From positions 5,313 to 32,091 of the forward strand of contig MHIR01000023.1 in the NCBI GenBank assembly GCA_001817615.1: DNA of 26,779 nucleotides, in the 5' to 3' direction. This DNA is from Candidatus Buchananbacteria bacterium RIFCSPLOWO2_02_FULL_46_11b. GTDB lineage: Bacteria > Patescibacteriota > Patescibacteriia > Buchananbacterales > UBA6539. Under the pieces are notes generated by a model. The model saw only the letters and a program-made list of their open reading frames with translations, ran no database searches and was not told the DNA's origin. The translations under genes and the position numbers were made by a program. Of this stretch, positions 2,763 to 7,551 are shown piece after piece (the stretch's first letter is position 1; each line of letters begins with the position of its first letter).

Positions 2763-4226
2763 TTATAGGATTGGTTTTCGTTTGTGCCAATCCGTCGCCT
2801 GTTCGTAATTGTGGGCGACGCGTAAAATCGTGGCTTCGTCGAAATGTTTGCCAATCAGCTGCAAACCGACCGGCATTTCAATCTGGCCGTCTTGGGGCAA
2901 AGCAAAACCGCAGGGCAAAGAAATGGCCGGCACGCCGGCGATATTGATCGGCCCGGTAAAAATATCGGCCAAATACATCTGCAAAGGATCTTCCATTTTT
3001 TCTCCCAGTTTGAAAGCCATGGTCGGCGCCGCTGGCGCGGCCAGGCAGTCAACTTTTTTAAAAACTTTTTCGTATTCCTGCTTGATTAAGGTCCTGACTT
3101 TGGCGGCTTTCAGGTAATACGCATCATAATAGCCGGCGGACAAAGTATAAGTACCCATCATAATACTGCGCTTGACCTCCTGGCCGAAACCGGTTTGGCG
3201 GGACTGTAGATAATTTTCCAAAAGATTTTCCGCCCGGGCCGAAAATCCAAACCGAACGCCGTCATAGCGGGCCAGATTGGCGCTGGCTTCGGATTTAACC
3301 AGAATATAATAAGTGGCAATAGCATATTTAGTCAAAGGCAGGCTTACATCAACGATTTTGGCGCCCAGCTCCGCCAATTTGGCAATTGCGGTCTTGATCG
3401 TCTTTTCCACTTCTTTGTCTATGCCGGCGACGAAGAACTCTTTGGGCACTCCGATTTTCAGGCCTTTGATGTCTTTTTTTAAATCAGCGGCATAATCGGG
3501 CACCGCCACCGGCGGCGTGGTTGAATCTTTGGGATCGGCGCCGGCAATCGCGTTTAAAACCAAAGCGGCGTCTTCCACGGTTTTGGTTATCGGGCCAATG
3601 GTATCAAAAGACGAAGCGTAAGACAAAACGCCAAAGCGCGAAACCCGGCCGTAAGTGACTTTCAGCCCGACTAGGCCGCAAAACGATGCCGGCTCGCGGA
3701 TGGAGCCGCCGGTATCCGTGCCTAAAGCATACAGGCATTGGTCGGCGGCCACGGCCGCGGCCGAGCCGCCGGAAGAACCGCCCGGCACCCGGCTTAAATC
3801 CCACGGATTTTTGGTCGGGAAAAAACCGGAATTTTCCGTGGAGGAGCCCATGGTAAATTCGTCCAAATTGACTTTGCCCAGCATTACGTAATTATTCGCT
3901 TCCAATTTTTCCACTGATGTGGCGGAAAACGGCGGCACATAGTTTTCTAAAATCTTGGAAGCGGCCGTGGTTTTGACGCCTTTGGTGCAAAAACAATCTT
4001 TAATCGCCGCCGGAACGCCGGCCAAGGGCCGGGAAAAATCGCCGGCCTGGTCCGCTTCTTTGGCTTGTTTTAAAGCCAGATCTTTGGTCAGGGTGATAAA
4101 TGATTTTATTTTATCATCGGTTTTTTCAATCTGTTCAAAACAAGCCTTGGTTATTTCAACCGAGGAAAATTCTTTTTTCTTCAAGCCGTCGCCGGCCTGT
4201 TTAATTGTCAGTTCGTTGAGTCTCAT
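2763..4226 (-). CDS. gatA: Glutamyl/aspartyl-tRNA amidotransferase subunit A
   Basis: Amidase signature GGSSGGSAAAVAA, GTDTGGSIR, RYDGVRFG, GQEVKRSIMMGTY. Confidence 0.98.
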   Translation of the reverse strand: MRLNELTIKQAGDGLKKKEFSSVEITKACFEQIEKTDDKIKSFITLTKDLALKQAKEADQAGDFSRPLAGVPAAIKDCFCTKGVKTTAASKILENYVPPFSATSVEKLEANNYVMLGKVNLDEFTMGSSTENSGFFPTKNPWDLSRVPGGSSGGSAAAVAADQCLYALGTDTGGSIREPASFCGLVGLKVTYGRVSRFGVLSYASSFDTIGPITKTVEDAALVLNAIAGADPKDSTTPPVAVPDYAADLKKDIKGLKIGVPKEFFVAGIDKEVEKTIKTAIAKLAELGAKIVDVSLPLTKYAIATYYILVKSEASANLARYDGVRFGFSARAENLLENYLQSRQTGFGQEVKRSIMMGTYTLSAGYYDAYYLKAAKVRTLIKQEYEKVFKKVDCLAAPAAPTMAFKLGEKMEDPLQMYLADIFTGPINIAGVPAISLPCGFALPQDGQIEMPVGLQLIGKHFDEATILRVAHNYEQATDWHKRKPIL

Positions 4227-4357: not shown

Positions 4358-4648
4358 CTAAAAGACCGACTTGGTCTTGACCAAATTATCCTCCCGCTCC
4401 GGCGCCAGCTTAAGCAATTCCTCGCGAACCTTTGGGCCAACCTGATTAATGGCATCATCGGCCATCACGTTTTCCAGGCCTGTTACCTGGGCCGTCGGCA
4501 AAACACCTTCGGTGTCCACTTCTTTCAGCTGTTCCACGTAATCTAAAATAGAAGAAAGCTGGCCGGCAAACTTCTCAATTTCTTCCGCCGTCAGGCCCAG
4601 CCGGGCCAAAAGGGCGATATGTTTTACTTCTTGCTTAGAAAGATTCAT
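4358..4648 (-). CDS. gatC: Amidotransferase subunit C
   Basis: 96 aa, EVKHIALLARL...QLSSILDYVEQLKEVDT; directly upstream of gatA. Confidence 0.95.
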   Translation of the reverse strand: MNLSKQEVKHIALLARLGLTAEEIEKFAGQLSSILDYVEQLKEVDTEGVLPTAQVTGLENVMADDAINQVGPKVREELLKLAPEREDNLVKTKSVF

Positions 4649-4688: not shown

Positions 4689-4717
4689 AGTATACAGATA
4701 ATTTTGGGGTTTGACAA
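4689..4717 (-). promoter_or_regulatory. Sigma70-type promoter for gatC-gatA
   Basis: TTGTCA-N17-TATACT on the minus strand, ~40 nt upstream of the gatC ATG. Confidence 0.75.
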
Positions 4718-4739
4718 GCCCGAGATAATATGATATTTT
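4711..4739 (+). promoter_or_regulatory. Divergent sigma70-type promoter facing the gatC-ligA intergenic element
   Basis: Perfect TTGACA (4711-4716), 17-nt spacer, weak -10 TATTTT preceded by TGn. The -35 overlaps the -35 of the gatC promoter. Confidence 0.45.
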
Positions 4740-4760: not shown

Positions 4761-5337
4761 GGCAATGAGCTCCGGGCCGCGCGGGGCCTTCCACCTCTCC
4801 GCGGGAGGTTCAACTCCTCCGGCTTATTGCCTCTATAATCTAAATTTTTCCACCAAGGATTTAACAAGCCGGCTGATTGGCCGGTTATAGGTTTAAATCC
4901 TATCGGATCCGCCAAATCTTTGGTTGCGGCGGCCACGGGTAATAACTCCCGAGCCAAAATCCGCTTCACTTTTTCTTTCATGCCGCAACCAAATCTTTTG
5001 CTTTTCTTTGCCCCGGACGGTGGGACCGCAGTCCAACACCGGTATGTCTGCCTCCAACGGCGCTTTCAGGGGCTTTTTTCCCCCGGCCCCGCGCCAAACA
5101 GACGTCATTCCGGGGCAAAATTTTTTCTGCCCGGCATCTCTTTATGAAACCTTAACCAAAGCCATGGGAAGTCTCGCTGCCTTCGGCCCAGAAAGCGCTT
5201 TACCCCGAATAATTCCGTTCTTTAATTTATTTTTTGCCCCGGACGGCGCAATCCCCCAAGGCGCTGGCATGTCTGTCCCAAGCGGCGTTTCCAGGAGTTC
5301 CCCCCGACTCCGCGCCAACCAGACGTCATTCCGGGGC
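4761..5337 (+). ncRNA. Candidate structured ncRNA of unknown family
   Basis: Consecutive stem-loops at 4761-4831, 4856-4901, 4920-4992, 5007-5119 and 5236-5337. G-U pairs and a T-loop favour the plus strand; bounded by a promoter-like and a terminator-like sequence. Confidence 0.5.
5007..5337 (+). repeat. Two diverged copies of a ~105-113-nt structured motif (5007-5119 and 5233-5337)
   Basis: Both copies share TTTGCCCCGGACGG, GGYATGTCTG and CAGACGTCATTCCGGGGC; inner stems show compensatory changes. Confidence 0.9.
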
Positions 5338-5346
5338 TTAAAATTC

Positions 5347-5389
5347 AAAAAGGCGCGAACTGAAAATTCAGGACGCGCCTTCTTTTTTT
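5347..5389. terminator. Probable bidirectional intrinsic terminator
   Basis: AAGGCGCG/CGCGCCTT stem with a T7 tract on the plus side and an A5 tract on the other side; 10 nt past the ligA stop. Confidence 0.75.
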
Positions 5390-5398
5390 CGCGATCGG

Positions 5399-7551
<2,153 letters not shown>

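Follow-up and report, generated by a model that had tools for sequence, protein, structure and literature searches.

The gap between gatC and ligA in the window (the whole stretch of DNA analysed here, 26,779 nt) carries two GC-rich repeat copies on the + strand, and comparison with relatives showed that they represent a new orphan RNA motif of very narrow range. We hold with moderate confidence that the copies are paralogous, clade-restricted RNA domains of about 100-107 nt within a tRNA-type unit, which are probably released from a precursor and probably act in trans. All occurrences found come from a small set of closely related groundwater Patescibacteria, in which four species-level lineages were seen.

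Patescibacteria (CPR) have tiny genomes and are not culturable alone, and almost nothing is known about their regulatory or structural small RNAs. The motif itself is a well-supported, narrowly distributed orphan, which is useful as a new seed alignment and is no surprise in kind. The locus appears to be a former tRNA transcription unit that now carries folded modules other than tRNAs, and these modules are under purifying selection, yet show fast turnover between close relatives. If the C-rich loops of the motif are a binding surface, they would give a first handle on post-transcriptional control in Patescibacteria.

A predicted non-coding unit between gatC and ligA

The flanking genes gatA, gatC and NAD-dependent ligA are all encoded on the - strand (Table 1). 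The 750-nt gap between gatC and ligA contains a promoter-like site, a minihelix, further hairpins, the two motif copies and a terminator, and this order of elements places the motif inside a separate predicted non-coding unit on the + strand, opposite to gatCAB and ligA. The same promoter boxes were conserved in the six loci L083-L088 and in the family loci, and the promoter region was the only part of the gap that could be aligned across the family or between genera. The two promoters stand back to back (4689-4739) and share one -35 region, TTTGACAAG, for the + strand unit and gatC.

Table 1 Features of the gatC-ligA gap and of the two motif copies in the window
Feature	Position	Strand	Remark
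gatA	2763-4226	-	flanking gene
gatC	4358-4648	-	flanking gene
Divergent gatC promoter	4717-4689	-	-35 box overlaps that of the + strand promoter
Promoter-like site of the non-coding unit	4711-4739	+	TTGACA, 17-nt spacer, TG-extended TATTTT
tRNA-like minihelix	4761-4831	+	head of the unit; 9-bp acceptor-like stem, hairpin, T-arm GGAGG-UUCAACU-CCUCC
Motif copy 1	5010-5116	+	107 nt
Copy 1 P1	5010-5017/5109-5116	+	MFE fold
Copy 1 P2	5018-5022/5037-5041	+	carries an extra mini-hairpin
Copy 1 P3	5044-5050/5100-5106	+	MFE fold
Copy 1 P4	5059-5063/5092-5096	+	MFE fold
Copy 1 P5	5069-5074/5085-5090	+	MFE fold
Inter-copy spacer	5117-5235	+	3' part 5161-5235 73% conserved in L085; ends as the T-rich leader of copy 2
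Motif copy 2	5236-5337	+	102 nt
Copy 2 P1	5236-5243/5330-5337	+	MFE fold
Copy 2 P2	5244-5249/5261-5266	+	MFE fold
Copy 2 P3	5269-5275/5320-5326	+	MFE fold
Copy 2 P4	5284-5288/5312-5316	+	MFE fold
Copy 2 P5	5294-5299/5306-5311	+	MFE fold
Copy 2 C-rich loops	5250-5260, 5276-5283, 5300-5305	+	segment table
Two-way intrinsic terminator	5352-5389	both	hairpin GGCGCG...CGCGCC 5352-5379; T-run 5380-5389 on the + strand
ligA	5399-7426	-	flanking gene, NAD-dependent

The minihelix at the head of the unit has a perfect T-arm, without a D arm or an anticodon arm. It gave a weak match to the tRNA-Sec model of Rfam (17.8 bits), and ARAGORN did not find a tRNA at its position. Throughout the GTDB family ligA and gatC remain neighbours, with gaps from 77 to about 940 nt, and in several relatives tRNA genes lie in the gap on the strand that does not encode gatC, equivalent to the + strand of the window. 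At the minihelix position itself, a tRNA or an odd tRNA was located in L086 (1293-1367, -), L087 (1342-1417, -) and L088 (1319-1395, -); the relatives had either tRNA-Leu(taa) or tRNAs with anticodon loops of 6 or 8 nt (called 'gc' and 'cgta' by ARAGORN). This series looks like the stepwise decay of a tRNA into a still-kept, non-decoding element at the head of the unit. With tRNA genes in the relatives and a tRNA-derived minihelix here, the non-coding unit can be traced, as far as its sequence tells, to a tRNA locus.

At the other end, the predicted terminator hairpin can end both the + strand unit and ligA, and on the - strand it is flanked by TTTTTGAATTTT after ligA. No ORF follows the unit on the + strand, where the terminator faces the 3' end of the convergent ligA. 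Between species, the terminator region (5340-5392) was 94.5% identical over 55 nt, versus about 50% beyond it.

Fold and covariation of the motif

Both copies lie where the initial annotation had placed them, and MFE folding of each copy on the + strand reproduced the stem architecture described there. Each copy forms a three-way junction, which consists of a terminal stem (P1), a side hairpin (P2) and a long arm (P3-P4-P5). P1 is an 8-bp stem, GCCCCGGA/UCCGGGGC, in both window copies, and P2 abuts it without a linker. The long arm begins with P3 (AUGUCUG/CAGACGU) and an asymmetric 8/3-nt loop, which are followed by P4 (GGCGY/GCGCC), a 5-nt bulge and P5 capped by a C-rich loop. Compared with dinucleotide shuffles, the folding z-scores of the two copies on the + strand were -3.5 and -2.6, while copy 2 on the - strand reached only -0.25. 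The duplicated unit comprises the motif and a T-rich leader, about 129 nt in all (4994-5122 versus 5219-5345), and its two instances are 74% identical. Beside a T-rich region elsewhere in the window there is another GC-rich folded stretch (517-659, -), and it has a 14-nt word (CCCCGCGCCAAACC-like) in common with motif copy 1 (E 1.3, probably chance).

The pair-preserving changes between the two copies that had been pointed out from the sequence were all present, namely two double changes in P5 (GGGGCU/GGCCCC versus GGAGUU/GACUCC), U-A to C-G and G-C to G-U in P2, and C-G to U-G in P4. To extend the comparison, four full motif sequences were available from a narrow clade, namely the paralogous window copies 1 and 2, and the homologues in L085 and L086. 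Folded alone, each of the four gave the same architecture, with sense-strand z-scores from -2.6 to -6.2 that were better than those of the antisense strand. Segment-by-segment reading of the four sequences showed that 128 of the 128 stem pairs were standard, including 10 G-U pairs, and no A-C combination was seen. The 10 G-U pairs would be A-C mismatches on the other strand, which argues that the + strand is the one that acts as a folded RNA.

In an alignment fitted to the structure by the model, 100% of the cells paired, versus 36-50% (about 40%) when the partners were slid, and double substitutions were found at seven stem pairs. The observed covariation score was reached by none of 500 shuffles, a result that is to be read with the structure-fitted alignment in mind, and the covariation has little statistical power since only four sequences were compared and two of them are paralogous. 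RNAalifold on a plain, sequence-only MAFFT alignment recovered P1, P4 and P5 and missed P2 and P3. Identity between the window and L085 was 84% in the motif, 93% in the tRNA-like element and 94.5% in the terminator, and 41-62% in the linkers. Taken as a comparison of sequences, this indicates that the three-way junction, with a P1 of 8-9 bp abutting P2 and a long P3-P4-P5 arm, is kept by selection. The initial annotation had considered that covariation might vanish in a wider alignment; every pair is kept instead, and the covariation reaches the orthologues in other species.

The unpaired bases gave a different picture from the one first proposed for the junction. Its nucleotides had been called near-invariant, which holds between the two window paralogues but not between species: across the four sequences J2/3 reads GU, GC, G or AC, and J3/1 reads CAU, CAU and CAC and is absent in L086, where it is absorbed into the helices. 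The constant unpaired bases are those of the C-rich loops and not of the junction. Summed over the four sequences, the unpaired bases were 77 C, 39 A, 29 U and 11 G, and the unpaired segments are thus kept C-rich and G-poor. The P5 loop UUCCCCC and the internal loop YCCCAA are conserved, and the P2 loop contains CCCC(A)A, in the form of AAUCCCCC(AAG), UGCCCCAA or, in L083, UUUCCCCG. Each window copy has a hexamer of its own that is found in its P2 loop and again in its internal loop (UCCAAC for copy 1, CCCAAG for copy 2). We infer that the C-rich loops are probably a contact surface for a partner.

Distribution and history of the motif

In line with the first impression that no known family was recognisable, Rfam 15 gave no match to the motif, either at the gathering score or at E values up to 10, and the structured motif was nevertheless borne out as real. 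No description of it was found in the literature. BLAST and covariance-model searches detected only the two copies in the 1.03-Mb genome (assembly 89% complete). The covariance-model search proposed in the initial annotation was carried out with model R1, built from the two window sequences (copy 1 scored 128.6 bits), and model R2, built from the four sequences. It succeeded in so far as homologues were recovered in L085 and L086, but none turned up across the genome sets from family to phylum: R1 gave no further homologue in 19 family genomes and 150 class genomes, and R2 gave none in 30 order, 150 class and 150 phylum genomes. The motif was thus not found in about 340 other Patescibacteria genomes. 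With filters off, R2 found nothing in 26 other ligA/gatC loci except L086, which is part of the R2 seed alignment. An exact 18-mer scan gave no matches in viral contigs and 42 chance matches in species genomes, which were mostly from Bradyrhizobium and none of which fits the model. A metagenome scan with a strict pattern gave no matches, and with a loose pattern the matches listed (80 loci) were chance only, none of them fitting R2.

Within the species, both copies were present on 11 contigs and were identical except for a slightly lower copy-1 score on L077. Four DNA sequencing runs contained same-species fragments only, with one A>G difference at 5154.

Among named organisms, the nearest GatC relatives are Candidatus Buchananbacteria. 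Closer relatives were fetched via GatC and LigA homologues, and three further species (L083, L085 and L086) proved to have motif homologues between ligA and gatC, on the strand equivalent to the + strand of the window. L085 (GatC 86% identical) aligns over the whole gap and contains a single motif (91.8 bits), placed where copy 2 is in the window; this positional orthologue of copy 2 (L085:86-186, -) is 84% identical, and the copy-1 position holds only a diverged, decayed remnant. In L083 (GatC 89%), the contig ends 37 nt into a motif at the copy-1 position. A single, equally oriented motif is present in L086 (GatC 75%; L086:824-925, -; 50.3 bits, E 3e-9), and upstream of it lies a full-length tRNA with an abnormal anticodon loop. 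L084 (GatC 78%) and L087 (GatC 76%) have no motif; their promoter and terminator are kept around different bodies, and L084 has a hairpin similar to the window terminator.

With an orthologue of copy 1 in L083 and an orthologue of copy 2 in L085, the duplication would predate the split of the window species, L083 and L085; it appears to be old within the clade, and L085 seems to have lost copy 1 later. The tandem state is not a conserved device. Any tandem cooperativity is not conserved either, since one related species is single-copy and a second shows only one motif. The motif as a whole is dispensable, because close relatives with GatC identities of 76-78% do without it.

The unit bodies of L084 (1844-2500), L087 (970-1500) and L086 (486-1500), all on the - strand, are unrelated in sequence, GC-rich and dense in hairpins. 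C-runs are mostly unpaired in the unit bodies of the relatives; over all gaps of the relatives, runs of at least four numbered 71 for C versus 36 for G, which may merely reflect strand composition. To judge from these loci, the folded modules carried between promoter and terminator seem to be replaced rapidly by others. Outside the gap, L083 has a gene for a four-helix protein of the bAvd/23S-rRNA-intervening-sequence type between gatC and gatA (801-1169), versus only a short spacer there in the window.

Possible functions and comparison with known systems

The transcription, processing and RNA ends of the motif unit are deduced from what the locus encodes. The unit would be transcribed from the + strand promoter and end at the two-way terminator. 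Each module would probably be released from the precursor with P1 protecting it, by analogy with other stable RNAs that have paired ends. It would then probably act in trans via its C-rich loops (UUCCCCC in P5, CCCC(A)A in P2 and YCCCAA in the internal loop), whose partner would be either a protein or a stretch of G-rich RNA. A bolder version, to which we give only a small chance, takes the motif as the first member of a new class of RNAs in Patescibacteria that derive from decayed tRNA operons, act in trans as regulators or sponges and use their C-rich loops to capture a specific G-rich RNA or an RNA-binding protein; a new ligand-binding fold, as the alternative to such a class, is less likely.

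A general anti-Shine-Dalgarno role of the C-rich loops would seem unlikely, because G-runs are rare at the crude ribosome-binding sites: of the 1015 upstream regions delimited by crude start calls, 1.8% had GGGG and 2.8% had GGAGG. No G-rich targets at translation starts were identified by duplex ranking, which was dominated by stem bases included in the probes and relied on the same crude start calls.

The main rival to a trans-acting RNA is a structural module that works only in cis, within the tRNA-type transcript; it might, for instance, be a folded spacer that steers nucleases or keeps them out (by protecting the 3' end or defining processing sites), or one that aids termination beside the convergent ligA. 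We regard this as rather unlikely, though as a serious contender. It agrees with the place of the motif, which in the window and L085 immediately precedes the terminator, with the great variation of unit bodies between relatives and with the close relatives that lack the motif. However, not only the stems but also the loop sequences are conserved, in L086 the motif and the next terminator are separated by about 100 nt, the L084 terminator works with a different body, and two copies are retained in at least one lineage.

The initial annotation had likened the tandem pair to riboswitches or ribozymes with a ligand-binding or catalytic junction, and this comparison did not hold up: no + strand gene follows, the junction varies and the tandem is not conserved. 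In the riboswitch form, a metabolite-binding aptamer would control the downstream terminator and hence antisense read-through into ligA. The compactness of the three-way junction would suit this, as would the intrinsic terminator 12 nt downstream of it in the window and L085, and the P4 strand CGCGCC could, by its sequence, pair with the terminator 5' arm GGCGCG. But an aptamer has no downstream ORF to control on the + strand, the junction bases differ between species and the spacing to the terminator is different in L086, and with the tandem state not conserved and no Rfam riboswitch match even at E 10, we consider it improbable.

A repeat acting at the DNA level (REP, REPIN, MITE or an integron attC-like element) is very improbable, even though the copies are palindromic and GC-rich with AT-rich flanks. 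The initial annotation had named scattered copies with target-site duplications as the mark of such an element; the copies are not scattered, both of the two in the genome being at the motif locus, and there are no target-site duplications, the flanks not being direct repeats. Every one of the nine other P1-like word pairs falls within a long ORF and lacks the fold of the motif. In L085, copy 1 is missing through decay and not through clean excision, and the 10:0 excess of G-U over A-C marks one strand as functional. Nor do the viral contigs contain a match, and the 42 matches in species genomes are chance hits that misfit the model.

That the copies are self-cleaving ribozymes of a new or very divergent class, in tandem, is more doubtful still. 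The small, stable multi-helix fold and the tandem arrangement in the window would allow it, but no Rfam ribozyme model matched, no hammerhead, twister or similar core was seen (no CUGAUGA/GAAA or comparable), the junction is not conserved, and a retroelement or repeat context is absent.

We give hardly any credence to a very divergent housekeeping RNA (5S rRNA, SRP RNA or tRNA) or to small-protein-coding repeats: the motif is close in length to 5S and 4.5S RNA, its own assembly has no 5S, SRP, RNase P or 6S match and only tRNA-sized tmRNA-model matches below the family cut-off, and gene callers placed ORFs of 71-120 aa over the region, but canonical 5S (82-92 bits) and RNase P RNA are present in the family at other places in the genome, the 5S of 107-109 nt found elsewhere in 16 of the 19 family genomes has nothing in common with the motif, neither copy was matched by ARAGORN or the Rfam tRNA model, the SRP core GGAAGCAGC is lacking, the small ORFs overlapping the region have no Pfam match and frames that are not kept in L085, and the copies, which differ by indels of 1 and 4 nt, are 226 nt apart and thus out of frame. 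The 5S, SRP, RNase P, tmRNA and 6S identities of the motif were all rejected.

Regarding the housekeeping RNAs themselves, 5S and RNase P RNA were found normally in relatives, where 5S is often close to a contig end, so the gaps in the RNA set of the motif's own genome (89% complete) are probably assembly breaks and not biology. The small SRP model RF00169 had no match in that genome (G000) and five relatives with near-complete genomes (G002, G005, G008, G012 and G014), and the large SRP model RF01854 had none in that genome and four relatives; either the family has an SRP RNA that is too divergent for these models, or it may lack one.

Among known elements, REPs are 20-40 bp long and occur in high copy number (Di Nocera et al. 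2013, PMC3733652). The motif resembles REP/REPIN elements in being GC-rich, palindromic and placed between convergent transcription units next to a terminator, and it differs in its length of 102-107 nt, its two copies in one locus and its strand-specific G-U pairing. Like the orphan structured RNA motifs obtained by comparative genomics of intergenic regions (for example PMC2864571 and PMC1950547), it is defined by conserved structure and compensatory changes and is not in Rfam; compared with those motifs, its range is far narrower, and its four species-level lineages give too little depth for a statistical covariation test.

As for how a trans-acting RNA of this kind would work, the motif may operate like RsaE/RoxS-type sRNAs or loop-display sponge RNAs, by analogy and not as a family member. 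RsaE/RoxS (RF01820) are sRNAs of Firmicutes that base-pair through C-rich loops. The motif is likewise about 100 nt long, with stable GC-rich stems that display unpaired C-rich segments, and it would likewise be transcribed on its own and not from an mRNA leader. Unlike RsaE/RoxS, which consist of hairpins and a terminator, it has a terminal stem that closes a three-way junction; it also lies inside a tRNA-type unit of a Patescibacteria host and has no sequence or model match to RF01820 (E up to 10).

The 3'ETS-leuZ sponge of E. coli is a functional RNA carried in a tRNA precursor. The tRNA of the motif unit has, unlike in that case, decayed to a minihelix, and the motif is a large folded domain with covariation, versus a short linear spacer. 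In both, a non-tRNA module is carried in a tRNA-type unit, and the motif, like 3'ETS-leuZ, would be released by the tRNA-processing nucleases.
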